From Candidatus Amarolinea dominans (GTDB taxonomy: Bacteria > Chloroflexota > Anaerolineae > SSC4 > Amarolineaceae), in contig JADJYJ010000010.1 of NCBI GenBank assembly GCA_016719785.1, positions 1 to 64,000 of the forward strand: DNA of 64,000 nt. The letters are read 5' to 3'. A model generated the notes under the pieces. It saw only the letters and a list, made by a program, of their open reading frames with translations, made no database searches and had not been told where the DNA came from. The position numbers were made by a program, and so were the translations under genes. Shown in pieces: positions 1 through 43,726 of the stretch (position 1 is its first letter; every line of letters begins with the position of its first letter).

Positions 1-18
1 GAATGAAATGAGACAACC

Positions 19-1529
19 ATGAACTGGAAACAGGTTTTGCAGCAGGCTATGGCAGTGACCCTGGTGATGTTGTTCTTGGCTGGATGTGGAAGCGCCATAC
101 CCACTTCGGTCGTCGAAGCTCCGGCTCAAACACCAGAGCCGCCAGCGCCGACCCCACCACCCGCTCCGCCAACACCTGGCTCTGGACCAAAGTCCGGGGC
201 GTCTGGCCTCGGCGACTCCTTGTATCCCGGCTTCGGTAATGGCGGCTATGATGTCCAGCATTATCGCCTTGACTTGACCGTCAGTGATGTTGGCGCCAGT
301 ACCCTAAACGGCGTTGCTACCATCGAAGCAAAGGCGACACAAGATCTGAGCGCTTTCAACCTGGACTTCATCGGTTTCACCATCGCGGGCATCACCGTGG
401 ATGGTCAGCCAGCCGAGTTCAGCCGCAGCGGGCAAGAACTGACGATCACGCCGGCAACGCCACTTGACGCAAACGAGCTCTTCACGGTCGAGGTAACCTA
501 CCACGGCGCACCTGAAGCGATTGAATCGGTTGCGATCCCTGTGCCGACCGGCTGGGTGAATTTTGGCCGGGGAAGCTTCGTGTTGAGCGAACCCGACGGC
601 GCTGCCAATTACTACCCGGTGAACGACCATCCCCTGGACAAAGCGACCTACACCTTCCGCGTCACCGTGCCCAAACCCTTCGCGGTTGCGGCGAATGGAG
701 TGCTGGCTGACACGATTGATCACGGCGATTCCACCACCTTTGTGGGAAGCCCGTGATCCGATACCAAGTTATCTGACCACGGTGAACATCAGCGAGTTCG
801 AAGTCGAAACCGAGGAAGGCCCGAATGGGATACCAATTCGCAACTACTATGCGGTGGGATTGGACGCAGCGATACGCGCACCTTTCGCCCGCCAGGCGGA
901 GATGCTCGCCTTCTTTGGCGAAATTTTCGGCCCGTACCCCTTCGAGGTGTATGGTTCGGTGGTGATGAATACGGAGGTTGGTACCGCCCTGGAAGCGCAG
1001 ACGATGGCGATCTTCGGCGTTGACATAATCAATCTTGAGGACATCTCGTCCGCTGAGCGGATCATCGCTCACGAAGTCGCGCATCAATGGATTGGAAACA
1101 GCGTCAGTCTGGCGGATTGGAGCGACATCTGGCTGAATGAAAGCTTTGCGGCTTATGCGGAGGGGCTGTGGGTTGAACACACAGGGAAGCGAAGCTCTTG
1201 ATGCGTGGGTCAGAGACCGATACGAGCATGTCGTTGAGTCCCGCGAGAAGATGACCCCGCCGGGCAAACCCGCGGCTGACAGCCTGTTCAACGGCGGGGT
1301 GTACGCCTGGGGGGCGCTGGGACTGCACGCGCTGCGGATCGAGGTCGGCGATGAGGCCTTCTTCGCTATTCTGAGAACCTATTTTGACCGCTTCGAGGGT
1401 GGCAATGTCAGGACTGCCGATTTTATCGCCGTGGCGGAAGAGGTCAGCGGACAGGAATTAGGGGCGTTCTTCGATAGCTGGTTGTATAGCGAGGAAATTG
1501 CTCCTATGCCTGCGTTGGGGCTGAAGTAG
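19..1529 (+). pseudogene. M1 family zinc metallopeptidase (aminopeptidase N-like) lipoprotein, split into three frames by two +1 frameshifts
   Basis: ORFs 19-756, 686-1201 and 1137-1529 are consecutive pieces of one protein. Piece 1 has the lipobox LFLAGCGS. Piece 2 has the gluzincin HEVAHQW motif and the downstream NESFAAY Glu. Each piece picks up where the previous one ends in the next frame. Confidence 0.8.
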
Positions 1530-1571
1530 GTACACCACTGATCAAGGCGGTATAACCTCTCAAGTCGCATC

Positions 1572-2512
1572 TCAATTGCTTCGATACGCGGCCACGCGAT
1601 CCTGACGCCGCGCCAATTCGCTCGTGTAGCGCCGGCCCAAGGTGTCAGCATGGGTCGCGATCCACGCGCTGAGCGCGGTTGCGCCGGCCGGTTGGGCATC
1701 CACATAGAGTAGATTCGCCATCAGTCCGGCGATCTCCTCGTGCGTGATGGTCACATCGCCGACCAGCGCGCCAACCGCACGACCGACCCAGTAGCCCACG
1801 GCCGGCGGCATGCCGATCACCGGCCGCCGTGCGCCGATCAAGCGGCCGATGGTCCCCACCATCTCCCGGTAGGTGAACGTTTCGGGGCCGATGGCGTTAA
1901 TGATCGCGTTCTCCCGCGCCGCGCCCTGCACCACGGCCAGGGCAGCCAGGTCATCCACGTAGATCGGTTGCAGCTTGTAGGCGCCGTCGCCGAAGACGCC
2001 GAAGATGGGCAGGCGGCGCAGCAGCCAGGCGATGTTGTTGATAAGGATGTCCTCCTTACCGAAAAGCACCGTGGGCCGCAGGATGGCATACGACAGACCT
2101 GACTCGATCAGCGCCCGCTCCAGCCGGGCCTTGCCGCTGAAGTACTCCAGCGGCGAGTCCTCCGAGGGGTTGGTGATGCTCACATGCACGATCCGCGCCA
2201 CGCCGGCGCGTTTGGCCGCCTCGAAGAGCACGAGTGTATTGCGCACTGCGTCCGCGTGGCGAAAGAGCGGGTGGTTGAAACGTACCCAATAGGTGTTGTA
2301 GAGCACCTCGACCCCCTGCAGCGAGCGCGCCAGCTCGTCAGGCCGGTCGAAGTGGAACGGGTAAATCCGCAGCCGGCCTCCGAACGCGTTGGCGGTCGGT
2401 CGAGTTGGTGAGAGTGATCGTCGGCTGGCCCTGGGCAAGCAGACGTTGCGCAATGCTGCTTGCCGGAATAGCCGAACACGCCGGTGACGGCGTGGATGCG
2501 AGCTTCTGTCAT
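1572..2512 (-). pseudogene. NmrA-like / NAD(P)-dependent epimerase-dehydratase (atypical SDR), frameshifted near the N-terminus
   Basis: ORF 1572-2453 matches the SDR body (VHVSITNP, YxxxK-like region). ORF 2180-2512 starts MTEARIHAVTGVFGYSGKQ, which is the Rossmann GxxGxxG N-terminus, and then goes out of frame after about 20 codons. Confidence 0.7.
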
Positions 2513-4230: not shown

Positions 4231-7200
4231 TTAGGGTCGCCCGGCGCTCGCCACCGACGCCGGCCACCAGGACGGCGTCGGAATGGCCCCGCGGCCCGCC
4301 AGCCCGCTGTGGTTGATGGTCACCAGGCGGTCGCCCTGCGAGGCGCCGACGTTGTACGGCGTCGCATTCGGGTCCGGGCCTTGCCCCACTTCAACCCACC
4401 ACATGTAGACTTCGCCTGACGGCCAGCCGGCGGGAATGCCCGTCAGGTTGACGCAAGCCACGTTGCCCAGGAAGGCCGTCGTGGCGGTTTCGCCGGTCAG
4501 CCAGTTGTAGAGCGCCAGCCGGTAGGTGTCGGTGGCTACGCCGCGCGGGGTCCAGCAGAACTGCGCCGGCAGCGTGATCTCGGCCCCATCCTCTGGCGAG
4601 ACCAGTGCGACATCGGCCACGTCGAAGTCTCCGCCCCAGGCCGTCGCGCCTGCGGTGTAGGCGGCCAGCCGGTTGCCCCACCAGCTCCACAGATACCCCT
4701 CGCCAGGGTTGGGGTCGTCGGGGGTGTTCAGATAGCGCACCGCGTAGAACTCGTCCGCGGTCAGCGCCGGCGCGCCGACGAAGAGATAATTGCCGTTTGC
4801 GGCCGTTATCGTCGCGGCCTGTGTGCTCCAATCATCGCCGTTCCAGCGCCGGAGGTCCAGCCGTAAACCGCCCGCGGCCGCGCCGTGCGAGGTGACCCGA
4901 CCGTAGATGCCATTGGCAGACGCTGTGGCTGTGGGGGTAGCGGTGGGCGTGCGCGTACGCGTGGCGGTCGGTGTGTTGGTCGGCGTGCCCGCGGACGCGG
5001 TGGGCGTGCGCGTGGGCGTGACGGTCGGCGTGCGGGTGCGCGTGGCGGTCGGTGTGCTGGTCGGCGTGCCTGCGGACGCGGTGGGCGTGGCGGTCGGTGT
5101 GCCTGCGGACGCGGTGGGCGTGCGCGTCGGGGTACGCGTCGCGGTCGGTGTGCGCGTGGGCGTGCTGGAAGCGGCGGCGGTCGGCGTGACGGTCGCGGTG
5201 GCCGCGCCAGAACGGCAGCCGAAGTCCTGCGCCCAGTAATGTTTGTAAGTGCTTGCTGCGTTGTAGCCGTAGCCGACGCCAATCTCGCAGACCAGGGGAT
5301 TGAGGAGATTGGCGCGATGGGGCGGGCTGTTCAGCCAGGCATTCACCACTGCTTCGGCTGAGTCCTGCCCCCAGGCGATATTCTCAGCAATCGTGTAGTG
5401 CGGCGAGTAACCGAAGCCGACCAATCTCGTGGTCATGTCACGGCCCAGGCGATCAATGTGGTTGGCGCTGATGTAGTTATACGCCGCCATGTCCCCGGCG
5501 AACCAGGCGGACGCATTGCCCAGGTTGGTCTGTGTTTGCAGCGGCGGCAGGCCGTTTTGGCTGCGCGCGGCGTTACTCAGCTCGATGACCCGGCGCACAA
5601 AATCGTTGCTGGTCGTGGTTGGCGTGGCCGTGGGAGTGCGCGTGGGCGTTGGCGTGGGGCCGCCCCCGCCCGCACGCCGCAACAGCGGCAGATACAGGCG
5701 TGGCGACTGCATCCGGAACCGGGCCGCCTGGAAGCTGGTCTGCTGGTCGAAGCTCACGCGGACGCCGAAGGTGTACTCGCCTTCCGGCGAGGTGGGCAGT
5801 CGCCCTTCCAGTGTCAGCGTGTTGGCGCCGGGCGCCAGCGTGCGCGTGCCGCTCTCGGAGAGCGCCGGGATCGCCTGGCGCGCGCATCCACCAGGATCAG
5901 GCTGTAGGTCGCGGTCACATCCTGCCCCACGCGGCCGGCGCTGCTGGCGGTATTGCTGATCACCGCGCGCAGACGGATGGACGCGCCGGGCGTCAGTGCA
6001 ACCGCTGGATTGCCCGCGCCGTCCGTCACCTCGACCGCGGCCATCTGCACAGGCGAGCAGGCGCGCGGGGTCAGGCCGATGTCCAGGTCCGTCACCGGCG
6101 GCGGTACGGTCACGGTGCGGCTCTGCGCGTCGGCGAAGCAGGGCTTGGCGGCCAGCACGTAGAAGCTGCCCGCTGACGTCTGCCAGCCGTAGCGACCGTC
6201 GCTGTTCGTGGCCTGCGGGTTGAGCTGCCCGGAAAGGGCCGGGTTCCAGATCGCGTCGCCCGTGACCGGGTCGCGCTGGTAGAGCGTCACCACCGCGCCT
6301 GGCAAGGGGGCGCTCGTGCTGGCATCGAAGACCTTGCCGGCCGGATCAATGCAGGCCAGCCGGCCGCTCAGCACAGTCTCGGTCATGGTGACGCCATCGG
6401 ACCAGACGACCCGCTTGGTCACGACGACGCCCAGGGCCGTGTTGGGGATGCTCGCCGCGCCGCGGTAGAGTCCGCCGCCGGAAAAATTGGACACACGGGT
6501 CATGACGCCCAGCAGGTTGCCCTGGCTGTCCACCAGGGTGACGCTGCTCGGCGGGTCGCCGTAGATCGGCTCCTCGACTGTGATGCTTGCGTGTGGTACA
6601 CATGAGACCACGAAGGGATAGTTGGCTGAAGTCACCCCGCGCCAGGTGTAGGGGCCGTAGGTGACGGTGGCCGCGCCCAGCCCGCGGCTGACATCCGACC
6701 GCACGGTGAATCCCTGGGCGAGTACGCCTGCCCGGCCGTTGGGATTGGTCACGGTTACATCGCGCGCCTGGCGCCAGGCCCGCGACCAGCGTTCCGCGCA
6801 CGCGCGCGCGGAAGGGCGGCGCTGTCTCGTCGGGCAAGTGCTGAAGGCCCTGCACGATGCTCGACCCCACCGCCGCCTGCAAGCCGGGCTGGAAGAAGTA
6901 GCCCAGGATGGTGACTTCGACGTTGATGCCCGCGCTGGCTGACGCCGGTTCGATGGCATCTACGATCGGGGTCGCGCCGTCGAAACAGCGCGAGAACTCC
7001 GAGGTGTTGCCGTTGGGGTCCGTGGCGGTGGCCGTCATCTGGTCACCGGCCGGCACCGCATTGACGAAGGTGGCCGAGAACGCGGCATTGCCCGAGGCGT
7101 TGGTGGTGGCCGTAGTTGCGCCCAGGAACGTCCCACCCTCGCCGTAACCCGAAGGATCGCAGGTGGGGCTGGCGAAGAATTCCAGCCGATAGCTCTGCGA

Positions 7201-10200
7201 GGGCTGGCTGTTGATGGAGCCGGTCAGGGTCTTGCGGTTGGCGGAGAGGGTCAGCAGCAGCGGGAAGTTCTGCAGGCGGTTGGGGCCATCGTCCGCGTCA
7301 CCGCTGTCGTTGGCCGTCGCCCCGGCCGGCGCCAGGTCGAGGCCCAGGCTGTCGTTGGCGAAGATGCTGTTGACCGCGAAGGTGTTGGTCCGGCCAGAAT
7401 CGGCGAAGACGCCCGCCCCGGCGTTATGGGCGATGACATTGCCTTCGCCCGCTCCCGCGCCGCCGATGTCGTTCTCACTCGCGCCCAGGGTGAAGAAAAC
7501 GCCATGACCATCATTCCCCAGCGCGCTCGTTCCGTCCGCTGCGGCGCCGATGAAATTGCCTTGCACGGTATTTGTGGTTGCGCCCGGCCGCGTCAGTTGG
7601 ATGCCGTCCTCGCCGTTGCCGGAGATGACGTTGCCCGGCTGAGGGCCTGCGCCGCTGCGCGGCCCGCCGATGGTGTTGCCACTGGCGCTGTCAACGGCCA
7701 CGCCCGCACGGGTGTTGCCCAAACTGGCCGCGCCCACCGCGTCCGGGCCGATCAGGTTGCCCAGCACTTTGTTGCCACTGGCGGCCGTGCCATAGATGCC
7801 CACGCCGTTGCCGCTGTTGCCAGAGATGACATTGCCGGGCAGCGCGCCCGCCGGCGCCGCTGCTCCGCCGATGATGTTACCCGGCGCACCCTGCACGACG
7901 ACGCCATCACTCCCGTTGCTCAGAGCGACCGTGCCCGCCGCGTTCACGCCGATGGAATTGCCCAGCACCTTGTTGCCGCTGGCGCCCGCGCCTTCGATCT
8001 TCACACCCGCCTGGCCGTTGGCTGCAATCACGTTGCGCGGCGAGGCGATGCCGACCAACGTTTCGCCGCCGATGGTGTTGCCCGGCGCGCCTTGAAGATA
8101 GACGCCGTTCAGGCCGTTGCCCAGGGCCCGTGTGCCCGTCGCGTCCGTGCCAACCAGGTTGCCCCGCACGACATTGCCCATGGCATTGGGGCCGGCAATC
8201 GCAATGCCGTGCCCTTGCGCGCCGATCAGCCCGTTGCCGGAGATGGTGTTGCCCGGCGCCGACCCCATCACGGTCGTCTCCCGCCAATCGAATTGCGCGG
8301 CGCGTCGAAGATCTTCACGCCATTGGCCCCATTGCCCAGCACCCGCGCCCCGGTTCGATTCGGCCCGATGATGTTGCCCTGCACCCGGTTTTCCGCGGCG
8401 CCGCTCTGGATGGCGACGCCGTCGAGCATGTTGCCCGAAATGATGTTCTCGACGTCGAACCCCGTTCCGCCGATCTGATTGGTGTTCGTTCCCGCGTCCG
8501 TCAGCAGCACGCCGCTGAGCAGATTGGGCAGCGCGTTCTCACCGGCCAGGTCCGTGCCGATCAGGTTGCCCTGCACCGAGCTGTTGGCGGCGGCCAACGA
8601 GATGAGCACACCCACCCCGTGGCCTTCAGCGCCGTCGCCGTTGCCGGAGATCAGATTGCCCGCGAGCGCGGCCGGCGGGTTGTTCGACCCGCCGACGGTG
8701 TTGCCGGGCGCACCGGTGATCTCGACGCCGTGAAAGCCGTTGGGCAGCCGTCTGGCGCCGGTCGCGTCCGCGCCGATGATGTTCCCCAACAGCCTGTTGC
8801 GCGTGGCGCCGCCCGCCAGAATCACGCCGTCCTGCACGTTGCCGGAGATCAGATTGCCGGGCGCCGCGCCGCGGGTTGCCGTAGCCCCGCCAACCGTGTT
8901 GTCGTTCGCCGCGTTGATCTGCACCCCGCTGAGTCCGTTGCCCCTGGCCGTCGCGCCGGCCGCATCCGTGCCGATACGATTGCCGGCCACGGTATTTTGG
9001 GTGGCGCCGTTCTGCAGGCTGATGCCGTATTGGCCGTTCCCGGAAAGCACATTGCCTTCTCCGACGCCCGGCCCGCCGATGGTGTTCGTATTTGCCGCGT
9101 CCACGACCACGCCGCTCTGGCCGTTGCCCAATGCCGTCGTCCCGCTCGCGTCCATGCCAATCCTGTTGCCCTGCACCTTGTTGCGCGCTGCAGCCTCCGC
9201 CAGACGCACGCCGTCCTGACTGTTGGCCGCGATGATGTTGCCCTGGAACGCGGCCGACCCGCCGATGAGATTGAGATCGCTGCCCGCGCTGTAAACTGCC
9301 ACGCCGTGGCGTCCGTTGCCCAGTCGGGCGTTGGCGGTATTGACGCCGATGGCGTTGCCGTAAATGATGTTCTCTGCCGCGCCGTTCTGGATCGTCACGC
9401 CATCCAGCCCGTTGCCGACGATGATGTTGCCCCCATCAACCGCAACCCGCCCCACCTGGTTGGTGCGCGTGCCCGCGCCGTCCAAAATCACGCCGCTGAG
9501 CCGGTTGGGCCGCGCCAGCGTGGCGGTGGCGTCCGCGCCGATGACGTTGCCTTCGATTTTGTTCAGCGTCGAGCCGGCGCTGACGAACACGCCCACGCCG
9601 TTGCCCTGGCTGCCATCGCCGTTGCCCGCGATGACGTTGCCGGGCGCGCTGCCGGCGGGGTTGGCCGGCGCGCCGATGAAGTTGCTGGACGCGTTCTCGA
9701 GCGAGACGCCGTGCTGGCCGTTGCGCACCACCGTCGTGCCATCCGCGGCCAGGCCGATGAAGTTGCCGTAGATGCGGTTGCTGACCGCGCGATCGCTCAG
9801 CAGCACACCGCTGCGACCGTTGCCCGCAATCACGTTGCGCGACTCGCGATCCTCGCCGCCGACCAGGTTGGAGGCTGTGTCGGAACCAACCAGCGCGACG
9901 CCCGCGTTGCGGTTGCCCAGGTTGGCGCTCCCCGCGCTGTTCGTGCCAATCAGGTTGCCCTTGATTTCGACGCCGGTCGTGGTCCCGTGTAGAACAATGC
10001 CGACCCCACTGCCGGCCGCGGCGCTGCCGTTGGCCGCAATCACGTTGCCGGGCGGCGCCCGGCGTGGCGCTGCGCCCGCCGATGAAGTTGACGCCAGCGT
10101 CCGCCACCTCGATGCCGTGCAAATAGTTGCCCAGCGCTCCCCCGGCGCCGGTCAGGCCGATGAAGTTGCCCTGGACACGATTATCTCTGGCGCCGTTGCC

Positions 10201-11835
10201 GATCCACACGCCATCCAACTTGTTGCCGGAGATGACGTTGCCTTCGGCCGCGGTCGTCCCGCCGATCGTGTTTTCCCTGGCGCCGTTGATCTCGACCCCA
10301 TGGCCGGCGTTGCCCGGATCAGGGTGGGCGAACGGCACGGCGCCGATCAGGTTGCCGAGCACGTGATTGCCCGCCGATGTGCCCGAAATATGCACGCCGC
10401 TGCCGGCGTTGCCCGCGATCACGTTCTCCGCGCCGTCGGCCGTGCCGCCAACCTGGTTGTCGAAGCTATTCGCGATGGCGATGCCGGCGCTGCCGTTGCC
10501 CAGAAGCCCTGCGCCCCATTGCAGCCCAACTCTATTGCCCTGGATGCGGTTCCCGTTGGCGCCGGCATACAGATAGATGCCAACGTTCCCGTTGCCGGAG
10601 ACCACGTTGCCTTCCTCCTCCGTATCGCCGCCGATGTCGTTGCCGTTGGCGCCCTGGAACACGATGCCGTAGCTCGTGTTCGGCAGGGCGGCGAGGCCCG
10701 AGCTCGTCAAGCCGATCCCGTTGTTCTGAATAGAGACGCCCGCGGTCCCGTTGTAGAGCAAAACGCCATTGGTGTTGCCGGAGATCAGGTTTCCCTGTCC
10801 CTCCGCGGCCCCCCCTACGTAGTTCTCATTCGCGGCTTGAATGCTGACCCCCGCGCCAGGGCTGTTGCCTAGCGCCTGGTCGCCCGTCTTGTTCGTCCCC
10901 ACGTAGTTGCCATAGATCCGGTTGCCGGTCGTCGCGCCGTTGATGAACACGCCGGTATGGTTGGCGCTGATGACATTCCCCTCTACGCGGTTGTTGGGGG
11001 AGCCGCGAATCTCGATGCCCGAAAGCGCGTTGCCCTTCGCTTGCGTGCCGCTCAGACCAACGCCGATATAGTTGCCGGTAATGATGCTGCCGCCGCCGTC
11101 CAGAATGAAGATTCCAACCTGGAAGCGGTTGATCGCCAGCCCCTTCACCGTGGTGGAACCTGCCCGGATCTCAAGCCCATTGGCCTGGTAGGACGGGGTG
11201 CCGTCCAGCTCGATGACCGGGGCGCCGTTCCAGCCGGGCTGCGTGGTCGCGTCAATGGTCACCGGATCGGTGATGACCGGCAGCCCCGGCCCCTGCATGA
11301 AAATCGTGTGCGGCCCAGGCGGATCAATGGCAAAGGTGATGTCGTCGTGGCCGGGGTTGGCGTTGGCAAGATAAATGGCGGCGTAGAGCGAGTCTGGCCC
11401 GTCGGGGTTGGCGTTGCGCACGATGTAGCCCTGGGGCGCGGCAGATTGGGCGGCCGCTGGCTGCGTTGATTGAAGCGCCGAGAGCAGGCGCGCGGTCGCG
11501 GGAATGCCGCCAACGACCGTCGCGGCCCGAACGCCATCGGCCCAGGTTGAGGCGTAGGCGAGGGGCGCCGACGAGGAGACGACAACCGCGCCGGGCGCGG
11601 TCTTCTTCGACGCCGGCGCTGAAGCGCCGCGGACGACGAAGGTCGTCTGCAGGCCAGCGGGAGCCGGGATGGGTGCGGTTCGACGCGGCCCTTCCGCCGC
11701 AGACTGCGAACCTGCGGTGAATGTCAACATGAGGGAGATCGCCAGAGTAAAGGCAATGTGCCCGGCGCGGGCAGCCAGGCGCAGCAAGGTGTATCGCAGC
11801 GGCATGTATCTTATCATCGTGTTCATGATCACCAT
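4231..11835 (-). pseudogene. Giant (~2,500 aa) secreted parallel beta-helix (PbH1) repeat protein with Cna-B/CarboxypepD_reg-like domain, PT-rich linkers and a C-terminal CAP/SCP/PR-1 domain; split by about 4 frameshifts
   Basis: Five ORFs (9436-11835, 8268-10043, 6346-8271, 5814-6959, 4231-5757) continue one another across frame changes. The N-terminal signal peptide is followed by hundreds of GNxIGxxxxG.../NxIGG beta-helix turns. The CAP domain shows ...[13 protein letters not shown]... and ...YWAQDFG. TPT(A/R)TPT linkers separate the domains. Confidence 0.8.
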
Positions 11836-12366: not shown

Positions 12367-12610
12367 GTATGCGTGCCGCCGTAACTGCTCAGCCAGGCAG
12401 TGAGAATGGTCTCGATAGCGCCCTTCGCGTCCTTGCGACTTGGCGTTATGGTTACAAACGACAAGAAGGTGGTGAAGAGAAGGGACTTGCACTTTGACAA
12501 TCGAATAGAACTTCCTATCTGTTTCGGGCGCAAGCGAGAACGCTGAAGTTACGGTGGCTGAAATGTGCTATCCTGAATAAAGTCATGAGGCGAAATTCAG
12601 GAGGCAGCCA

Positions 12611-24480: not shown

Positions 24481-24483
24481 CCC

Positions 24484-30800: not shown

Positions 30801-30899
30801 CCGATGGAAATCTGATGGAAATCCGATGGAAATCCGATGGAAATCCGATGGAAATCCGATGGAAATCCGATGGAAATCCGATGGAAATCGGCGGAAACC
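30801..30899. repeat. 11-bp tandem repeat CCGATGGAAAT x8 (plus a degenerate 9th) in the divergent intergenic region
   Basis: ccgatggaaatctgatggaaat(ccgatggaaat)x6cggcggaaacc. Confidence 0.9.
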
Positions 30900-31023
30900 T
30901 GCTGAAGCAGATTCGAAACGCCGCCCGCCGCAACCCGCTTCAGCGGGTTTCCAGTCGGATTCATCCGATGCCGGGGGGCAGGTTGAGCAGTAGGTACGCT
31001 TTTTGAGATGATACCGCTACAGG

Positions 31024-32334: not shown

Positions 32335-32345
32335 GACCCAAGAGA

Positions 32346-33215
32346 ATGCCACATACATTGTACATTGTGGGCACGCCGCTGGGCAACGCGGCCGATTGGT
32401 CGCTGCGAGCGCAGCAGGTGCTGGCGGCAACGCCGGTCATTGCGGCCGAGGACACGCGCGTCACCGCGCGGCTGCTGGCCCACTGCGGCATCAGCGGGCC
32501 GCGGCTGCTCACCTACACCGACGCCTTTGCGCCCAAGAAGGCGCAGCGCCAGGCCGAAGTGCTGGCGGCCCTGCAGGCAGGCGATGTCGCGCTGGTGTCG
32601 GACGCCGGGATGCCGGGCATTGCCGATCCCGGTTCCGAACTGGTGCAGGCGGCCATCGCGGCCGGGCATCGGATCGTGCCGGTGCCCGGTCCCTCGGCGG
32701 TGGTAACTGCCCTGGCGGCGTCGGGTTTACCCGGCGAACGTTTCCTCTTCCTGGGCTTCCTGCCCCGTCAGCGCGCTGAGCGGCAGCAACTGCTGCGTCA
32801 GGCCGCGGATGAGCCGGGCGCGCTGGTCTGCTTCGAGGCGCCGCATCGCCTGCTGGACTGCCTGCAAGACCTGGTTGCGGTGTTGGGCGACCGCCGCGTG
32901 ACCCTGGCGCGTGAATTGACCAAGGAGCATGAGGAGATCTGGCACGGTCGCTTGGGCGAGGCGCTGGCACGGTCGCAAACCCAGGCCCCGCGTGGGGAAT
33001 ATGTGATCGTCATCGAAGGCGCGCCGCCCGCGCCGGCCGCGGAGAGCGGCGCCTGGCCGGTTGGTCAGGTGCGCGAGGCGCTCGCCATCCTGGCGCAGGA
33101 AGGGATTGACACCCAGATGGCGCCGCGGCTGGTCGCGCGGCTGGCCGGCTGGCGCAAAAAGGACGTCTACCGCCTGCTGGTGGCAGACAGGGATGCCGCT
33201 GACCCCGAGGGGTGA
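32346..33215 (+). CDS. rsmI: 16S rRNA (cytidine1402-2'-O)-methyltransferase
   Basis: MPHTLYIVGTPLGNAADWSLRA, with AAEDTRVT, VSDAGMPGIADPG and FLGFLP motifs of the RsmI tetrapyrrole-methylase fold. Confidence 0.85.
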   Translation: MPHTLYIVGTPLGNAADWSLRAQQVLAATPVIAAEDTRVTARLLAHCGISGPRLLTYTDAFAPKKAQRQAEVLAALQAGDVALVSDAGMPGIADPGSELVQAAIAAGHRIVPVPGPSAVVTALAASGLPGERFLFLGFLPRQRAERQQLLRQAADEPGALVCFEAPHRLLDCLQDLVAVLGDRRVTLARELTKEHEEIWHGRLGEALARSQTQAPRGEYVIVIEGAPPAPAAESGAWPVGQVREALAILAQEGIDTQMAPRLVARLAGWRKKDVYRLLVADRDAADPEG

Positions 33216-33300
33216 CGCCTGACCGCTATACGCTCGACCGGCTGGCCGACGACTTGCTGGATTTCGCCGAGCCGGCCGACCTGCAGCGCTGGTTTACCCG

Positions 33301-33711
33301 TTACACGACGCAGTAGCCGCACACTGTCTCCCCAGTGAAAGCGAGGCGGCGGCTGGCAAGGGGCGGTTGGAGTAGACGCGACGACGCGATGGCTCCTGCC
33401 GCTCCCTTGTGTTCCTCGCCCCGGTTGCCGACGTAGCTACGCATCCACTCCTGCGCCGACCCCGTCAGGTTGAAGCCCACCGTGCCGCCTGCCACGTCGT
33501 CCAGCACCTGCCCGGTGAAGCGGCGCTGCGTCGGCGTCGTACCGAAGGTGTAGCGGCTCTCGCCCCACGGCTTGTAGCGAATCTCCGACAGCCGGCCGCC
33601 GGTCTCGCTGGCTGTCAGCGCCGTGCTGCCGAGATGATCGGTCGCCAGCCAGCGCACCACCCCGTTGACCCGCAGCGCAATGCGCTGACCCCCGGCCTGG
33701 TAATACATCTT
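33301..33711 (-). pseudogene. Orphan RHS core-end fragment with a short divergent C-terminal tail
   Basis: MYYQAGGQRIALRVNGVVRWLATDHLGSTALTASETGGRLSEIRYKPWGESRYTFGTTPTQRRFTGQ is the conserved RHS C-terminal core. It has no upstream repeats. Confidence 0.55.
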
Positions 33712-33748
33712 CACCTCATCACCTGCCTTGCGAGCAAGACAAACAATC

Positions 33749-34137
33749 CTAATCCTCGAACTGCTCGCGCTGCAGACAATCCTTGTAGACGGCATGCCAG
33801 ACGTATGGCTCAAAGCTGCCGAGATCATCGTCCACGACGAATACGCCATTGACAGGCCTACTCTTGACAATCACGATGTCGGCTTGGTCATACTTATGAC
33901 GGCCGAAGAAGAAAAGATCCGTGATTGTTTCAAGCTTGCCGCCTACGAGATTGGGGCATGGCTGATGGTACCAGGCCTTTCGCTCAGACTCCGGATCGCA
34001 TCGTCGCGCAGCGTCCCCACGGGCACCTGTTTTCTCGCCTCCTCCAACGGCGATGTATAGCATCCAGCTACCAGTGTGACCAACAAGATCACGACACTCA
34101 CTGCTCCCAGTCTGCCGGCAACACTGATATGTTGCAT
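33749..34137 (-). pseudogene. Small lipoprotein directly downstream of RHS-1 (candidate immunity protein), frameshifted
   Basis: ORF 33943-34194 gives signal peptide plus lipobox VILLVTLVAGC. It continues in ORF 33749-34063 in another frame. Confidence 0.4.
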
Positions 34138-34160
34138 AACAAGCCTCCTGGCAGCGTCCA

Positions 34161-36687
34161 TCAGAACCAACGATCCAGCATGAAAAAGTTCCATGCGTGT
34201 GTGATGTCCGTCAACCCCAGGACACGGAATCGAACACCGAGCGCAGCCCCGCGATTTCCGATGCTGACATCTGACCAGCTATTGCGCCAATCGCCATGAA
34301 ATTGCGTGATTTCGCGCCCCGTGTTGAGCAAACTGCCGCCCGGGCCGTACTCCGCCCCCATGGTCAGCGCCCAAGCCCAATGATGCACATTCGCATCGTC
34401 ATCTGAGGTGCCCATGAACGAGGCAGGCAACCCCTGCCGATCAAAATAAACCCAGGTCCGTATGGGATTCCCTGCATTGCTGACCGCCGGCCAAGCGTTT
34501 GGCGCTTCCAAGCGATTGGCTAGACCTCCGAACAGGCTACCAATGTCTCTGGTGAACATACCCTCTTCGCCAGCTTTGTACCAACCGGTCAAGCGTTCCA
34601 GCGCGCTTGGCATGTCATTCCATGACCAGTTAGCAGGTCGGTTGTCTCGGAATACGCTCTCCAGGTTTCCCTGGACGTAGTTACCGTCAGCGTCGTAGAA
34701 GACTGACCAATTCCACTCGCCAGGAAAGGCTATCGAGAACAGACGAATCAAAATGTCTTCGGCCGTCGGCGCACGATGATGCATCTGCTCAAATTCGTCT
34801 TGCCACGCCTGATCCAACGGGTCGTGGCCTGATGGATCGATAAAGCGTAGAGGATTATTCCGGCAGTAAGAGTAGCGATTGAGATTTTGCGGATCGCCAG
34901 GATTGGGTATAATGCTGTCGGGTTGGATCCACCGGTTAAGATAAGGGTCGTAGTATCTGGCGTTGTAGAAATACAACCCAATGCTCGCATCCTCGCGTTG
35001 ACCCGTGAACCGGTAGGTCGTCGGCGTCGCGCCGACGGGCGTCCCTCGATTCTCACCCCACGGCTTGTACCACAACTCCCCCGTGCGCTCACCGCTGGCG
35101 CCATTGGCCGTCACCGTCGTGCTACCCAGGTGATCGCGCAACAGCCAGTACAACACCCCCGCCACGCGCACGGCCACCCGCTGACCGTTGAAATAGTAGT
35201 ATTTCGTGTGCGTCGTCGCGCCGCCAACCACCTTCTTCTCGTACAGGTTGCCGATCGTGGTGACCGTCTCCCCGTTCATCACGCTCTTGACCCGGTTCCC
35301 ATCCGCGTCATACACGAAGCTCGCCGTTGCTGCCCCGCTGATGCTGACCAGGCGATTCTCGTCATCATACGTCAGGGTGTAGGTGTTCCCCCCGATCGTG
35401 CGCCGCCGCATGTTGCCGTTCTGATCGTAACAGTAACTGCTGCCGTTGCTTGTGCTCACCACCGCATGCTTCTTCACCAACGCACCTTCCGGGCAACTGC
35501 CCGCCTGCGCCACCCCGTAGCTGTACGTCCCCTGCCCCGTCTTGCTGATCAGGTTGCCCGCATTGTTGTAGCTGTAGCTCTCATCGTACACCCAGCTCCC
35601 GGTCCCATCGTCGTAGCCCGCGCAAATCGCATCACCCGTGAAGCCGCGCAACAACCGATCCAACCCGTCGTAGCTGAAGCACTGCCGCTGACCGCTATTG
35701 CGCGCATCCACGATCCAGCGCACATTGCCGGCCGTATCGTAGCCATACGTCAAGTCCTGCAAACTGCTGGCATCCGCCGACGTTCCTGCCTTCACCTTCT
35801 GCAGGCGCCCCAGTCCGCCGCTCGCTGTCCAGGGATGGTAGGTGAACGCCATCTGCACCACCGGATTGTTGTTGGTGCTCTGCTTGCCCAGCTTCAACTG
35901 CGTCAGCCTTCCGGCCTCATCATACACCGCATTCCCGCTGCGCACATAATCCACACTGCTGTACATCCGCCCCGGCAGCCCCTGCGCTGTGTACGCCACG
36001 TTGACCGTCTCCGCACTCTGGGTCGGGTAAACCACCCGCAGCACCCGGTCCGCCGAATCATAGGTGTAACCGAGGGTGTACGCCTCCCCATCAATCGTGT
36101 GCGTTTCCGCCGTCACCCGCCCGCGCTTGTCGTATGTCCAACTCGCGCTGTTGTTGACTTCGCCGCCCACATACGCCCTCATCCCGGTGCGCCGACCCTT
36201 GCCGAACTGCGTGGCCCCATCGAACGCATCATAGCTGTAATCGGCCAACACCATCCCGCTGCTGCTGCCGCTCTGCCATTTCTGCGTCAGCCGGTTCCAG
36301 TCCGTCATAGCCAAACCCTATCGTGACATTCCGCGCATCGGTCTGCGCCACCAGGTTCCCGGCCGTGTCGTACGTGTAACTCCACGCACCCATGTCCGGG
36401 TCGTTCATACTCGTCTTGCGCCCCAGCAGGTCGTACGTGATCGTCGTCACCGCCCCATCCGGCCCGGTCATCTGCAGCAGCCGGTCGGCGATGTCGTAAG
36501 CATAGGTCGTCACCCCGTTCGCATTCGCATTCCAGGCCGGCGTCGGACACGTGGCCGTGCCGCTGCCCAGTCGGTCGCCAGCCAGCGGGCGCGGGCGGGG
36601 CGGGGGGCTCGGGGCGCTTTGCGCTGATACCGTCGTCGCCAGAGTGGTAACAAGCATCAACTCTGCCGTGCAAAAAGGGGACATCAA
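34161..36687 (-). pseudogene. RHS/YD-repeat protein (about 840 aa) with signal peptide and about 240-aa C-terminal domain; one frameshift at about 36300
   Basis: ORF 36229-36687 carries the signal peptide and the first YD repeats, and ORF 34161-36314 carries the rest. The core ends ...YRFTGQREDASIGLYFYNARYYDPYLNRWIQPD...RFIDPSGHDP, followed by the C-terminal domain. Confidence 0.8.
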
Positions 36688-36765
36688 ACACCTCCTCTAC
36701 CCTAGATAACGCTACTTTATCACAGCGTTACTTTACCCAACTTTGGTAGTGGTGTCCAGTCCTCA

Positions 36766-37177
36766 TTTCACATCGTACGGTGTCAAATCGAGCAGATTCA
36801 GAGGAATCCACCCTTCAAGAGAACCTGAGGATTTGACAAAGGCCCAGAATTCTTGATCGGTATTTGACCAGGCAAAGTCCCAAATGGTAACTTCTTTGTA
36901 GCATGGCAGAACCCCCAACAGATTACCTCTGTCACCCATGTATGCACTGTTTGGATCTGAAGGCTTGACACCGGGCAGTTCCCAGATACTAATCCCGCCT
37001 GGATCTAATTTCGGATCCCCTGTACATCCAATACTCGCCTTTTTTGGCAGTACTTGTAGTTCGTGTGGTGTTGTTGGTGTTCTCTCGGGGAGGGGTCGGT
37101 TGAGGCGATATCAAGGCGCATCCGTTCAGCGTCAACATAAATAAACACATCGTTATGGTCAATATGGTATTCAGCAT
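36766..37177 (-). pseudogene. Small lipoprotein starting 4 nt after the giant RHS stop (candidate immunity protein), frameshifted
   Basis: MLNTILTITMCLFMLTLNGC lipobox in ORF 36989-37270. After a frame change near 37000 it continues ...GCTGDPKLDPGGISIWELPGVK...WIPLNLLDLTPYDVK* to 36766. Low-GC region. Confidence 0.45.
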
Positions 37178-37181: not shown

Positions 37182-40100
37182 CTACCTCGCCCACGGCTGA
37201 AAGTAGTACCATGGCACACGATGACCAGGCGAGTTGCTCGCCCAAAGCCCGGATCGCGCATCCACAGCATAAGTCACGGCCAAGCCAACCTCTGCCATGC
37301 TGATGATTCCATCATACAACATGGACCCGTGGCTTACCGCCACATACCCCAAGTTCAGATCGGGATTACTCAACTCGCTGAGAGGGCCATCTCGAAGCCA
37401 ATTGCTGGCGTAACCAGCAGCTGGCCCAAAGAAATACCCCAGGTAAAAAAGTCCTGCGTAATGATGGCTTGGATTGGGGTCATCAACCAATGATGCTCTC
37501 CAGTTGGCTGTGCCTTCGAAGAGAGGTTCATATTGGGCCCATGCAGCGCCAGGGTTGGTTGCCATCTGCCAGGCTGCAGGGATGGCATGGCCAAGCGGTA
37601 CACCTCCCCAAATAAAACCAATGGCTTGGGCGTATAATCCTTCCTCGCCGGGTGCATAATACGAGGCCAGTTGTTGAAGATGAGTAACAAAACGATCCAG
37701 TCCTGCAGATGGAGCGCCTTGCCATGATGTGCTACCTTCCCAGAGTCCTTCCCTATTGGCGTGATACCTTGTCCAATCCTCATCTGTCCACGAACCGTTA
37801 GCCCCACTGCCGGCAAACAAGATCGAAAAGAACCGATCTCGGCGATCTTGGTCAGTTGGCGCACGATCATGCGCGGCGTAGAAGGCTTGCTCCCACGCAG
37901 CATCTATGGGGTCAAATCCACTCGGATCCACAAAACGTAAAGGTCGGTTCCCGACATAGCTGTACCGATTCAAACTTTGCGGATCTTTGCGGCTGGGGAA
38001 TGATCGTATCCGCGGCGAGGAATCGCCCGATGACCGGGTCATACCATCGCGCCTGGTAGAACAGCAACCCTGATCCACTATCCCGCCGCTGCCCCGTGAA
38101 GTTGAACGTCGTCGGCGTCGTGCCCGCCGTGTAACGCGGCGCGCCGTAGGGGTAGTAGCGAATCTCGGTGTTGGTGTTCAACCGATTCCCCGCGCTGTCC
38201 AGCGTCAGCGCGGTGGAGCCGAGATGATCCGTCAGCAGATAGTAGAGTACACCGCCGCTGTTCTCCGCCACGCGTGCGGCGCCAGCGTAATAGTACTTCT
38301 TGACCGTCCCGTTGTCTACTTCGTAAGTGTTCCCTACGAAGACCCGGGTCGCGCCGCTGATGGTCTCCTTGACCCGGTTGCCGTCGCCGTCGTACACGTA
38401 ACTCGCCGTCACGCCCCCGGACATCGCAGTCAGCCGATTCTCCGCGTCGTAGGTCAACGTGATGTCCTGGCTGCCGCTGATGCGCCGGGTGGCGTTGCCA
38501 TTCTGGTCGTACCAGTATTTCTGATAGCCTGCCGTCGTGCCCCCGACATGGGTCACAGCATGCTTGTGTGCGCCATTCTGATAGTAGAGGTTCGTGCCTG
38601 TGCTCTCGAAATTGGTGATGTTGCCCGCATTGCTGTAGGCGTAATTGCGCTGGCTGTAAGCTCCGTAGTTTCCATTGTTGGCAACGCAGGTCCCCCCGCT
38701 CAGCGTGCATGCCGTTTGCAGACGATCCAGTCTGTCATACGTGAAGCGCAGCGCCTGGCTCCCGCCGTACGCCGCCGCATCCGTAATCGTCAGCACGTTG
38801 CCCGCATCATCGTACGTGTAGCTGATGTTCTGCCGGTTATCGTAGTTCGGACTCGTGCCTGCCTTCAGGCTCAGCAGGCGGAAGTTCTCGGCCGCACTGT
38901 AGGCGTACAGTTGTTTCACCACCCCGGTCGTGCTGCCCAGCCAGCGTTCCATCACCTGCCCGCGTTCGTTGTACTGCGTCTTGCCGACATAGTAGGTGCT
39001 GCCGTTGCTGCGCACTGTGTTCAGCAACCCCTGCGTCGTGTACGCATAGTGTACCTGCTCGCCAATCTGACTCGCACTGCCGCCGGGGTATTTCATCCAC
39101 AGCGGCCGATCCGCCGAGTCGTATCCCCACTGTGTCACGAAGGTTCCGCCGCCCGTTCCGTTGATGGCCTTGCTCTCCTGCGTTACCCGTCCGCGGCCGT
39201 CGTAGGTCCAACTCGCGCTGCCGGAGCTGTCGCTCATCCCGGTGCGTCTCCCCTTGCCGGTTGTGCCGCTGTCATACGTGTAACCCACCGCCGTCGCACT
39301 GCATCCACTCGACCCGCTGTAGGTCTTGCCCTTCACCCGGTTGAGGCCATCGTAGCTGAAGGTGATGACGCAACCCCGCGCATCGGTCTGCGTCTGCAGA
39401 TTGCCCGCCGTATCGTAGGTGTAGCTCCACGCACCCATGTCCGGGTCGCTCATGCTGGTCTTGCGGCCGGCCAGGTCGTACCCGATCGTCGTCACCGCCC
39501 CGTCCGGCCCCGTCATCTGCTTCAGCCGGTCGGCCACATCGTAGCTGTAGCTGGCCTGCCCGTAGACCGTCGCTCCCCAGTTCGGCGCAGCCCCCGGCGC
39601 CAGCGTCAGATCATACTGCTTGACACTCGCCAACCGCCCAAAGGCATCGCTCTCCGAGATCGTCTGGTGGTTCAGCTCGTCCAGCATCGCCGTCTGTCGA
39701 TTCTGGTAGTAGGTGCGCACGGTGCTGCCGTCCGCCTGCGTGACCTGCGTCACCCGCCCCAACCGATCGGACGTTGACTGCGTCGCGGCCAGCCCACTCC
39801 AGTTCACCGCCTGGTACGTCACTCCGCTCACCGTACTCGTGTACGGCGCCGAGGCCGCCGCCAGGTTGCCCAGCCCATCGTAGCGCTGGCTCACCAGGCT
39901 CCACTGGCTGCTGCTGTACTCCTTCTGCACCTGCCGCACGCGCCCCAACCCATCGTAGAACGTGCGCTCCTCCAGGTAGGTCGCACTCGCGCTGGCGTCG
40001 CCATTCCCATCATCGCGCAGCAAATGCCGCTGCACATACAACCCCTGGTCCGTCGTGTAGACAATCTTCTCCGTCGCCGGGTTGCTGAACCCCGCCCCCG

Positions 40101-43100
40101 GCTTACGCACCTCCGTCAGCCGGCCAAACGTATCGTACGTATAGAGCGTGACCGCCTCGTTGGCGTCGGTCTCGCTCTGTATTTGTCCCACCAACCCGCT
40201 GCCCCCGCCGTCGCATTCATGCCGTAGCGCGATGGTCGTCGTCAGCGTCGCGCCGCCCAACTGACAGGCCTGCACCGTTACGCTCATCGCATAGGCATGA
40301 AACGTGCTGTCGAAGGCCGTCGTGACCACGCTGCCATTGGCCGCCGTCTCGCTCCAACGGTTGCCCCATTGGTCATAGCCGTAAGCCGTCGACCGCATCC
40401 AGTTCGCGTCACACCCCGTGCCGCCCTGTCCCGCCTGCCACACCTCTCTCACCTGCCCAGCCGTCGGCGCCTGGTTGTACGCCGCATAGCCGCTGTAGTT
40501 GTCGTAGATGGTGCGCGTCTGCCCCTGGCATGTCCCGCTTTCGCTCCCCGCGAACAGCTTCTCCTCCGCCACCCGATTGACGATGTAGGTCGTGCCGTCA
40601 TTGCGTGGGGAATAGACCCGCTTGATCGTTCGGTATGGTATCGTTGGCGCGGCCTCGCTGTATAGCCGGGTCAACAGCAGATTGCCATACGCCGCATCGT
40701 AGGTGTTGACGCTTTTGGTGTAACGCAGCGGCGGGTCCGTGCCGTTGGGGTCCACAACGTATTCGGTCTTGTCTTGCAGATAGACGAAGTGCATCCCGCC
40801 CGGCGTCCCCACGCTGGTCTCGTTCCAGGTCTGCAGCGAACGCGCCAGCAAGTTGTTGGTGACGCCCAAACCCGCACGCGTCTCTGTCTTGGACAGCTTG
40901 CCTTTCCAGCGGTGCTGATTGGTCGTGGTGTGGAACCACTGCTTCAGCCGCGTGTCCGGCTGACCGCTGCCGATCAAGGCGCCGCTCCCTACCAGCGTCA
41001 TTTCCGCTTCGGCAAAGCCCCCCGCCTCGTTGTCCCAGGTCGTCGTGTACCAGTAGCTCGTCACGATGTCCGGATCGCTCCCGCCCCCACGCCGCCGCTC
41101 CTGCTGCACCACCATTCCGCCGCTCGAACCGCCGTACGTAACCTCCACCCGTCCCTGGTAGCCGTTGTTCACCGTCACCATGTGCCCATCCGTCGTGCCG
41201 CTCCCGTAGGTGTAGCTGGTTGGCGGCAGCGCATTGCTGCCGGTCCCATAGTGCGTGATCGTACTCAAGTACAGCCGGCTCTGCGACGGCGCCGCCGGGT
41301 TGATGAACGCCGTCATGCCCAACACCAGTTTGTGCAGCAGCGTATTGTTGGCCATCACCTCCACCCGCTGCAGGTACTTTCGTGTCCAGAAAACCTGGTA
41401 GCCGGTCTCGTCGAAGTGCTGAGCCCGGTCCTCCCGGTTCAGATAGAATAGCTTCAGCTTGAAGGCGCCGTTTGGCCCATAGCTGATCTCCTTCACCCGC
41501 ACCGCACGCACCTGGATGCGCGCATCGGCCGTGTAGTCGCGGTTCCAACAGTCTGCCGGCACATTCACCGCCAACAACGAACCCTCATAGTCATAGCTGA
41601 ACGTCAGACGATTAGGCGTCGTTGGCGTGGTGTCGCGCACCTCGGTCAACACCCACTTGGTGAAGCGATGCACCACCCGCAGTTCCGAAGGCGTCCAGTC
41701 TCCATTGCTGCAATCGCGCACATACAGCGCCGGCTCGAAGTGATAGGTAATGCCGCCCTCGGTCGTCACCTCCCACACCAGGTTGTCCCGGTTGTACAGC
41801 GCCGGCGTCTGGGGCAGATCAATCGTCTTGAAGGGCGTCGGCGTACTGGGGTCAAAACTTCCATCGACTGGATAGTCAGGGTTGGAAGCGGTGGGCCGGC
41901 GAATCTTCAGGAAGGGGTCCTGCACGCTGTAGAAAATCTCGCCGTGTTTCTCCAATTCATGGGTCACGCCGTTCAGGGTCAGGTGTACTTTCCCATGCCG
42001 TCTGGAGTCAAATCGTGCAGGATGTAGCTCAACCCACCGATGTCCCAGCCCCACCCGGCCAGTTGATGATGACCGGCGCCGGCCAGGCTGCGGCTGCTAT
42101 AGTCCAGGCTTAGCCCAGGCGCCAGTCCGCCCGGCCCCGGCGGCGCTGCGATCGGGTAGCTCACGGTCCAGGCCCCGTTGTACAACTGCGACTGCACCCC
42201 TTCGATCCCCGGCGCAGGCTCTGGCACAATGGCGTTGCCTTGCGCAAACAGCGTCAAATGGGTCAGGGTGGTGATCAGCCGCCTTTGCTCCTGATCCATG
42301 CTCGTTGGCAAGACCACCCAACGCCCGTCGGCCGCATCCTGGAAGAACAGCGAAGCGCCCGGTGGCCAGGGCGTTTGCTCATCGCCAGCCGCCGGATCGC
42401 GATAGCGCAGCGTCAACCCCACCGCAAACTGTGTCACCGGCAGTCCCGACATCTCCGTGGCGCTCAACTCGAACAGGAAATCAAGGTTCGCCGGCTGATC
42501 GGGATCGCTCTCGTGCGGGTGTAGCGCACCAGGGTCGGTGCGCTGACCGTACCAGCCGGAATCGTGAGCACCACCCGCCCATCGCTGCTCTGCAACCGGC
42601 TCTCCTGATCAGGCATCACCCACACCTCATCCGGCCCCGGCCCCGGCGTCCAGGTGGCGTCGGCGTCGGCGTACACCCCTCATCATCCTGGCAGGGGTGA
42701 CGGTGCAGCCGTCGGCGTTGGCGTCGCCGTCGGCGTCCAGGTGGCGGTCGGCGTTGGCGTCACTCCTCATCCTCGGTGGCGTGGCCGTCGGCGTCGGTGT
42801 ACACTCCTCATCCTGGCAGGGCGGCGGCTCGGCCGTCGGCGTGGCGGTCGGCGGTTCGGCCGTGGGCGTCGGCGCGCAGTCCTCGCCCAGGCAGGGCGCC
42901 GCGGTGATCGTGATCGCAGCGCTGGCCGTCACCCCTGCGCCCACCTCCTCGCTCACGATGGCCGCGGTGTTGGTGATGACCTGCCCGCTGACCGCACCCA
43001 GCGCCTGCGCCTGGAACGTGCCGGTCAGCGTCGCGCCCGCGGCCAGTTGGCCGATGACCCACTCCAGCCGGCGCTCGGCCTCCAGGTAGCTGAAATCCCC

Positions 43101-43322
43101 CTCCCCGGCCGGCCAATAGGCCAGCTCCAGCGGCAGGGTATCGCTCACCACCAGCCCGCTCAGGGCGCGGTCGGCCAGGGTGTTGGTGATGACCACGGTG
43201 TAGGTGACCACCCCGGCCGGCTCGACCTGCCGCGGTGCCGCGGCCAGCGTCAACTGCACCGGCGCAGGCGCGGGCGTCGCACCAGGATCGGAAATGAGAT
43301 CGAAATTGGGATCAGGGGACAT
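37182..43322 (-). pseudogene. Giant (about 2,040 aa) RHS/YD-repeat polymorphic-toxin-like protein: DUF11/CARDB-like domain, PT linker, SpvB-like N-terminal region, YD repeats, RHS core, about 270-aa C-terminal domain; about 4 frameshifts
   Basis: Pieces 42627-43322 (DUF11, TPTPTATP), 42464-42676, 41979-42467 (GWGWDIGGLSYI) and 37912-42054 (dozens of YD repeats; YYYAGAARV...LTDHLGSTAL...FTGQRRDSGSGLLFYQARWYDPVIGRF). These are followed by 37182-38078 (PxxxxDPSGFDP then the C-terminal domain). The shift at about 42005 occurs in a gggaaag run. Confidence 0.85.
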
Positions 43323-43345
43323 GGGTTTAGTAGCGGTATTTATCT

Positions 43346-43357
43346 GGGGGGGGGGGG
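43346..43357. repeat. Homopolymeric G12 tract (C12 on the RHS coding strand) about 25 bp upstream of the giant RHS start
   Basis: tatctggggggggggggtagcagc. Confidence 0.85.
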
Positions 43358-43726
43358 GTAGCAGCAGCCGCCGTGGAAAAGAGCAGGCTGAATACTACCA
43401 ACAGATGAACCAACGACGACAGGCGCGGCGCGAGCCGGCCGCGAGCAGAATGTCGAGAAGAGAGGAGAGAGAAAGTAGAACACCAGCGTAACATGACAAC
43501 GGACTCCTTTCGTGCAGCAATCGAAACGGCTGGGGTCAGGGACATTTTCCTGACTGCTGTAAGGAGGTCGCGGGCGGGAGAGAGAACTCTCGCCGGGGAC
43601 TTCCGACGGCGGGAGACGACTCGGAAGGCGGGGGGCATGCTTGTGGCTGGTCACAGCATACCACGCGCGCGGCGATCTGTCAAGAGGCAAATTCGGGTGA
43701 CGACAGGGAGTCACGAAGGAACCAAG

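Follow-up and report, generated by a model that had tools for sequence, protein, structure and literature searches.

Regionally clustered frameshifts in a Candidatus Amarolinea dominans contig very probably reflect consensus error rather than gene decay

We use a combination of protein-guided alignment, profile matching and nucleotide comparison with related assemblies to study a 64,000-nt stretch of DNA from Candidatus Amarolinea dominans (hereafter the window), in which a series of unrelated genes is broken up by small insertions and deletions (indels). The window is part of one contig (273,855 bp) of a metagenome-assembled genome (MAG) that carries locus tags of the form IPM84_xxxxx and is labelled "MAG: Anaerolineae bacterium". 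It contains at least 25 frameshifts or indels in total, all of them confined to two zones, 1-17.1 kb (zone A) and 33.3-43.4 kb (zone C), while 17.1-33.3 kb (zone B) and 43.5-64 kb (zone D) are free of them. An initial annotation, made from the sequence alone, had listed about 18 frameshifts; its list of interrupted genes holds up in alignment to orthologues and in the order of Pfam domains, but its count is too low and the indels are more clustered than it described. In what follows we set out the affected genes, then the tests that bear on whether these genes are broken in the organism or only in the deposited sequence.

The split genes were located by tblastn with intact orthologues, by the order of Pfam profiles and by nucleotide alignment. 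Frameshift-aware, protein-guided alignment to homologues, which the initial annotation had named as a check, confirms the splits: each intact orthologue taken from a related contig aligns to the window in two or three frames, and single Pfam domains run on across adjacent open reading frames (ORFs) that lie in different frames. A Viterbi model of codon usage places same-strand frame switches at 745, 1173, 5877, 6772, 8302, 10051, 15056, 17043, 36291, 41983, 42513 and 42680. For zone A, the relatives amount to up to ten independent assemblies, 94.8-99.5% identical to the window, and include SPAdes, MEGAHIT and Logan short-read contigs as well as two sibling hybrid MAGs. The relatives that cover this zone encode intact genes, and every zone-A indel whose length is not a multiple of three is seen against all covering relatives (3/3, 4/4, 7/7 or 10/10); we call such changes private to the window. 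A single indel, at 1563, does recur in a relative; it falls between genes and is a real polymorphism. Among the relatives themselves, coding indels are mostly multiples of three, the exception being a 22-nt deletion in the sibling MAG L149 to which we return below.

Zone A opens with an M1 metallopeptidase gene (19-1529, plus strand) that is spread over three frames by private 2-nt deletions at 745 (TG) and 1185, the second of these a complex site with three adjacent substitutions. Both deletions appear in 3/3 comparisons (L125, L073 and L144). The 90% cluster of this peptidase has at least ten intact members of 504 amino acids, and both fragments occur on the source contig only. The neighbouring NAD-dependent epimerase-like gene (1572-2512, minus strand; 313 amino acids in relatives) has a private 2-nt deletion at 2392-2395 and one extra C at 2456 with an adjacent substitution at 2458, and across the entire gene only 4-5 substitutions separate it from relatives. 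The extra C lies outside any homopolymer, just as the initial annotation had read the junction near 2450. A further private deletion, of one G, falls in intergenic DNA at 4207 (3/3 relatives, and also against L073 and L075).

The largest gene of this zone encodes a giant beta-helix/CAP-domain protein (4231-11805, minus strand), 2333-2534 amino acids long in relatives. It carries four private deletions, at 5880 (C), 6763 (TA), 8281 (G) and 10055 (GC), each seen against all covering relatives, and once the frames are corrected the gene contains no in-frame stops. The part that encodes the C-terminal portion of the protein (4920-5195) consists of degenerate tandem repeats of 12, 24 and 57 nt, in which strains differ by in-frame length changes of 6, 12, 24 and 45 nt. 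In L149, the 22-nt out-of-frame difference splits the gene into pieces of 2333 and 192 amino acids.

Further along lies a large serine recombinase gene (12732-14307, plus strand; 544 amino acids when intact) with private deletions at 12842 (one G of GGGG), 13409 (G), 13718 (G) and 13741 (AC). The loss of a G near 12830 was correctly identified in the initial annotation, which counted two frameshifts in this gene. Of the four indels present, two are uncompensated (12842 and 13409) and two form a compensating pair (13718 and 13741). An intact homologue, P0062, is 97% identical and belongs to a cluster of 53 sequences. Compared with an intact copy on a short-read contig (L148), the gene is 99.1% identical and differs by nine substitutions, five of which adjoin indels, plus the four deletions. 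The recombinase is the sole cargo of a 1.84-kb insertion at 12447-14290 that is absent from all relatives. The site is empty in L143, with the sequence CGACTTTGGGTT, and the two junctions of the insertion retain half-sites that are alike, CGACTTGGCGT and CGTCTTTGCGTT. The recombinase ORF extends into the flanking DNA, so that the C-terminal tail varies among copies (P0062, P0063 and P0064). Since dozens of near-identical copies are found on contigs of about 2 kb, the data suggest that this element is multi-copy and resembles an insertion sequence (IS).

Downstream of the insertion, a SRPBCC/polyketide-cyclase-like gene (14471-15058, plus strand) carries a compensating private pair that the initial annotation had not noticed, an extra A at 14996 and a missing C at 15025 (10/10 relatives), followed by an intergenic private loss of one C at 15084 (10/10 relatives). 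The next broken gene encodes a 93-amino-acid ABM-like protein (15777-16057, plus strand; the Pfam ABM match is weak, E 0.002). It has a private complex site at 15877-15879 made up of a 1-nt deletion (15878) and two substitutions; 10/10 relatives differ from the window there, and tblastn identity is 100% on each side of the shift. The three private changes downstream of this frameshift all fall at third codon positions of the original frame. Finally, a PspA/IM30-like gene (16861-17519, minus strand; 218 amino acids in relatives), which sits in an operon conserved across the class, has a private 2-nt insertion (TC) at 17045-17048 (7/7 relatives), and its Pfam coverage shrinks to profile positions 28-143 in the window as against 28-195 in an intact relative.

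Taken together, zone A holds 18 indels, a rate of 1.05 per kb, and 2 of the 18 are intergenic (4207 and 15084). At this rate, the probability of meeting no indels would be 4e-8 for 17.1-33.3 kb and 4e-10 for 43.5-64 kb. The two clean zones serve as controls. In zone B (17100-33300), all genes are full length, and indels relative to other strains are either intergenic or multiples of three. In zone D (43500-64000), the genes are likewise full length, the sequence is 99.2-99.9% identical to about 20 contigs, and the indels against these contigs all lie in intergenic spacers; the earlier statement that nothing is affected after 44 kb is thus borne out from 43.5 kb onwards. Its contrast between an affected accessory part and an intact core is too simple, however, given that a clean stretch lies between the two affected zones and that the PspA-like gene of a conserved operon is among those hit.

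We now turn to the nature of the indels themselves. The initial annotation had placed the frameshifts at homopolymers where inspected, an association that disappears in the full set: only 3/18 zone-A indels lie in runs of at least three identical bases (GGGG at 12842, CCCCC at 15025 and CCC at 15084), which is the level expected by chance when 12.9% of the bases in the zone lie in such runs, and 29/30 runs of five or more agree with the relatives. With no enrichment at runs, we reject homopolymer slippage as the cause. Deletions outnumber insertions 15 to 3. Six of them, a third of all zone-A indels, remove two nucleotides, some in short dinucleotide repeats, and all nine 1-nt deletions take a G or a C. 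Many sites have adjacent miscalled bases; private substitutions lie within 5 nt at six or seven of them (for example 1185, 2456, 13741 and 15878). Across the 18 sites we find no common sequence or methylation motif, the nearest candidates being GGAAGC after two deletions and CCTGG near three. Two technical origins were considered and set aside. An artefact at the boundaries of the 500-bp windows used by Racon does not fit, as the positions modulo 500 have no common phase. A consensus of two known haplotypes does not fit either, the relatives being monomorphic around the indel at nearly all sites.

This profile also bears on programmed recoding, in which ribosomal frameshifting or transcriptional slippage would decode the shifts and yield whole proteins from the sequence as deposited. 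Homology does continue in another frame at each junction, and beyond this nothing speaks for recoding. The orthologues are wholly without frameshifts, the shifts differ in sign and size (-2, -1, +1 and +2) and no slippery motif is common to the sites. We therefore give this explanation next to no credence.

The question of whether the indels are real mutations can be approached without reads, by asking in which frame the rest of the sequence has evolved. Substitutions were polarised with at least three relatives and classed in the frame of the orthologue. Window-private substitutions more than 30 nt from an indel comprise 30 synonymous and 17 non-synonymous changes (P 1.4e-7 against random expectation), whereas those within 30 nt of an indel comprise 4 synonymous and 11 non-synonymous changes and look random (Fisher P 0.017). 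Private substitutions are also concentrated at the indels, with 16/73 falling in the 6.2% of sequence that adjoins them (P 9e-6), and no stop-creating substitution occurs among the window-private changes. Because the private substitutions are mostly synonymous in the unbroken frames, the lineage of the window evolved under purifying selection in those frames; there is then hardly any neutral time for 16 coding indels to build up. On the private branch, zone A has 14 indels to 73 substitutions, zone B none to 27. A contig of the same haplotype, L157, differs from the window over 14331-16329 at ten places (6 substitutions, 4 indels), each of them private to the window. Over 14.5-15.5 kb, L143 differs by 2 substitutions and 3 indels.

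These data weigh heavily on genuine strain-specific pseudogenisation, under which the small indels would be real, two accessory islands would be in the course of being lost and their proteins would be non-functional in vivo. The reading has several points in its favour. The indels cluster where genes are mobile or accessory, at the recombinase insertion in one zone and at the RHS locus (described below) in the other, the relatives are mostly other strains, and the overall ratio of indels to substitutions, about 1:20 against relatives of 98% identity, is not unnatural in itself. The ratio of non-synonymous to synonymous substitution rates (dN/dS) is 0.21-0.30 in the broken genes compared with 0.10 in an intact neighbour that encodes an AAA-ATPase. 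As a gene-level test, however, dN/dS did not discriminate, since these values fit either reading, and it is superseded by the polarised private substitutions. Against decay stand the 30 to 17 ratio in the unbroken frame, the clusters of indel plus substitution at several sites, and the otherwise identical haplotype L157, which lacks 4 indels within 2 kb. Moreover, in the newly inserted recombinase element 4 deletions stand beside only about 4 isolated substitutions, the indels strike intergenic DNA and a gene of a conserved operon at the same rate, and the lesions are not shared by any relative. Nor do the at least 25 events include, after frame correction, any of the usual marks of decay that we looked for, namely nonsense codons, larger deletions or disruption by IS elements. 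Between the two possibilities that the initial annotation had offered, indel error and wholesale decay, the intact relatives, the privacy of the indels and the purifying selection on private substitutions all favour error, and we regard pseudogenisation as very unlikely. A variant in which the indels are real and stem from a very recent, localised burst of 1-2 nt deletions and adjacent base changes in two islands of one strain strikes us as likewise very unlikely. If it were true, the burst could stem from damage to a segment that was transferred or single-stranded, or from its error-prone repair, and more than ten genes would have been inactivated at once with the flanking DNA untouched.

In zone C the affected genes belong to an RHS locus, all on the minus strand. 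The main gene (37182-43494) encodes a toxin with DUF11, linker and RHS2 regions and shows about 7 events, where the initial annotation had counted about 4: its view that the gene is disrupted stands, its number does not. The events include an extra C at 37985, a stretch of several indels at 41985-42015 and, in the linker, a 1-nt deletion at 42519, another at 42658, a 1-nt insertion at 42706 and an extra 58-nt repeat at 42725-42782. Owing to a tract of 13 G at 43346-43358, the signal peptide is no longer in frame. The DUF11 linker shows apparent stops, but these fall within an out-of-frame segment. Next to this gene, immunity candidate 2 (36775-37177; 135 amino acids in the sibling MAG L063, its sole relative) has an extra C at 37082. 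An orphan RHS1 fragment (34161-36696) has an extra C at 36297; L063 is intact at that site and has its own 2-nt deletion (CG, in a CG repeat) at the position that matches 36144. For immunity candidate 1 (33749-34194), two overlapping ORFs suggest a possible frameshift, judged from the overlap and the translations alone, and the gene has no Pfam match.

The arrangement of these genes is worth noting in its own right. Downstream of RHS2 and its immunity gene, RHS1 is an orphan RHS C-terminal module that matches RHS2 from about residue 795 on, and a second, shorter RHS-tip fragment lies at 33488-33715; together, the two form a typical array of displaced toxin tips. At the annotated boundary between DUF11 and RHS2, a SpvB/TcB-like motif, GWGWDIGGLSYILR..GKV.LTLNG, spans the junction (window 41960-42030; L063 14250-14330). 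We had considered the junction near 42005 as a plain gene boundary and dropped this idea, since DUF11 and RHS share one frame in L063; judged on sequence, they probably form one polypeptide of about 2070 amino acids. The initial annotation had put the break here in gggaaag. The disruption is real, but it is a messy 45-nt stretch of several small indels and not a clean homopolymer slip.

At this same junction the window has its frameshift and L063 an in-frame TAG, and L063 has two further private breaks in RHS2, 1-nt insertions at 39129 and 39215. We count the different private breaks of this sibling MAG in the same RHS genes in favour of consensus error. The two hybrid MAGs share a disrupted 45-nt stretch at this junction, and this would also fit a mixed explanation, in which most indels are artefacts, the poly-G tract is truly variable in length through slipped-strand phase variation and some of the breaks in the orphan RHS may be real. 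Orphan RHS fragments are commonly truncated. The tract itself has 13 G in the window, 10 G in an independent contig (L067) and 11 G, with a different flank, in L063, and the gene is in frame in L063 only; lying between the signal peptide and the DUF11 domain of a secreted protein, the tract occupies the position expected of a contingency locus. On the other hand, the length of homopolymers of ten or more is difficult to determine with either Nanopore or Illumina instruments, so the length differences may themselves be errors, and with only three assemblies covering the tract, sequencing error is inseparable from real variation. We hold this mixed explanation to be possible but unlikely.

Where, then, does the sequence come from? 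Several predicted proteins of the window match GenBank records exactly: the 245-amino-acid M1 fragment is MBK9093629.1 (IPM84_12830), the next M1 fragment MBK9093630.1, a YqiJ-like protein MBK9093648.1, a 276-amino-acid protein MBK9093651.1, the DUF11 fragment MBK9093665.1 and a superoxide dismutase MBK9093666.1. All six lie on the one 273,855-bp contig, and their cluster mates bear the name Ca. Amarolinea dominans. Other exact-protein look-ups, with the SPFH protein, the TP-methylase, the product of the GH5-like gene and the M1 fragment, had no hit. The prediction that annotation pipelines would report fragments here is thus correct, with the M1 peptidase listed as two separate proteins. The G+C content of the window is about 63%, and its SPFH gene has relatives only in MAGs of Chloroflexota (Anaerolineae). 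Ca. Amarolinea dominans was described from four MAGs of the activated-sludge set of Singleton et al., which were assembled with CANU 1.8 from Nanopore R9.4.1 reads and polished with Racon, two rounds of medaka (r941_flip213) and one Illumina round of Racon. Three sibling assemblies are among our relatives (GCA_016704685.1, GCA_016707735.1 and GCA_016718485.1). Judging by the accession series, by the name of the species and by there being four MAGs in all, we infer that the window belongs to the fourth.

The explanation we favour is that the frameshifts, which are present in the deposited sequence, are a consensus artefact of one MAG assembly and not mutations in the organism. The sequence comparisons make this highly probable, for the indels are private, the same-haplotype contig L157 lacks the 4 that fall within its 2 kb, selection has acted in the unbroken frame, indels are in excess and the errors ignore coding. 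The M1 peptidase, epimerase, beta-helix, serine recombinase, ABM-like, PspA-like and RHS proteins are then, with strong support from the intact orthologues, expected to be intact in cells. In this scheme about one small error per kb would have survived in the final consensus of zones A and C. Most of these errors are losses of a single G or C or of two nucleotides; they often lie within small clusters of miscalls and are placed regardless of coding. Locally poor read support or failed short-read polishing is the likely cause, for example over a low-coverage, strain-specific segment, over repeated RHS sequence or over heterogeneous sequence. The non-homopolymer profile suggests that simple homopolymer errors were fixed and complex error clusters survived. 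Zone A is free of such errors in the sibling MAGs, so something local to the MAG of the window must be responsible.

Several observations weigh against this explanation. The errors are inferred from the comparison of assemblies and not observed in read pile-ups. The profile is unusual for R9.4.1, with no homopolymer enrichment and with long homopolymers correct, and the sibling MAGs that are clean in zone A are taken to come from the same pipeline. The sharp boundaries of the zones are not accounted for. Except over the 2 kb of L157, the comparison is with other strains that diverge by 1-5%, a setting with which real, strain-private mutations are compatible, and zone C has one relative, itself another error-prone hybrid MAG. 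The dN/dS of the broken genes, as given above, is somewhat higher than that of the intact AAA-ATPase gene.

Some other features of the window deserve mention. At 24345-24438 an intergenic spacer holds 4.5 copies of TTCAGCATTCAGCTCTGAGCA, a perfect 21-nt tandem repeat whose number of units differs between strains by one or two. Compared with the sibling strain L143, the segment 14290-30479 is a mosaic, with 0-0.2% divergence at 27.5-30.5 and 14.5-15.5 kb and 9.6% at 16.5-17.0 kb, and this mosaic divergence indicates recombination between strains. An island at 50639-58230 contains two paralogous pairs of Tricorn-like and M23 peptidase genes (segments about 90-97% identical) that flank a HigB/HigA-like toxin-antitoxin pair; GCA_016718485.1 lacks the island and has a 701-amino-acid ORF in its place. 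Close by, at 58416-58718, an ORF of about 100 amino acids with DUF4143 only is common to all strains. It resembles what is left of a longer gene for an ATPase and so, unlike the artefactual ones, may be a genuine pseudogene fragment.

It is important to note that the finding matters as quality control and not as biology. More than ten genes of a public MAG are deposited as fragments or would be called as pseudogenes (the M1 pieces are listed as "hypothetical proteins"), and studies of the pangenome, pseudogenes or metabolism of this abundant bulking filament would be misled by them. More generally, the errors that remain in Nanopore MAGs after hybrid polishing can be strongly regional and do not have to lie at homopolymers. 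One clean stretch of a contig is then no guarantee for the next, and a correction aimed at homopolymers would leave most of these errors in place. The read-free test used here, in which private synonymous substitutions respect the unbroken frame, tells artefact from true decay.

How does the window compare with known cases of broken genes? Mycobacterium leprae and recently host-restricted pathogens have pseudogene-rich, reductive genomes. The window resembles these in having several frameshifts per gene in many unrelated genes, but it differs in being without nonsense codons, large deletions or IS expansion, in having indels that no relative shares and in the purifying selection still visible. 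Phase-variable contingency loci with homopolymeric tracts are found in Neisseria, Haemophilus and Campylobacter. Only the 13-G tract is like them, placed just after the signal peptide of the secreted DUF11-RHS protein and differing in length between assemblies, whereas all other indels of the window lie outside repeats. Indel errors of long-read sequencing (Nanopore and PacBio continuous long reads, CLR) reportedly interrupt ORFs and are flagged by IDEEL-type length-ratio tests, as Watson and Warr are said to have described in 2019. Sereika et al., 2022 (PMC9262707) deal with the need of R9.4.1 data for polishing with short reads. Unlike such artefacts, the indels of the window are not enriched at homopolymers, long homopolymers are correct, many sites combine an indel with substitutions, and the errors are restricted to two zones of one contig with 37 kb error-free. 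Like them, the indels split unrelated genes into adjacent fragments, are 1-2 nt long with a bias to deletion, are private and absent from short-read assemblies, and stand in a sequence whose probable source was built by CANU, medaka and a single Illumina round of Racon.

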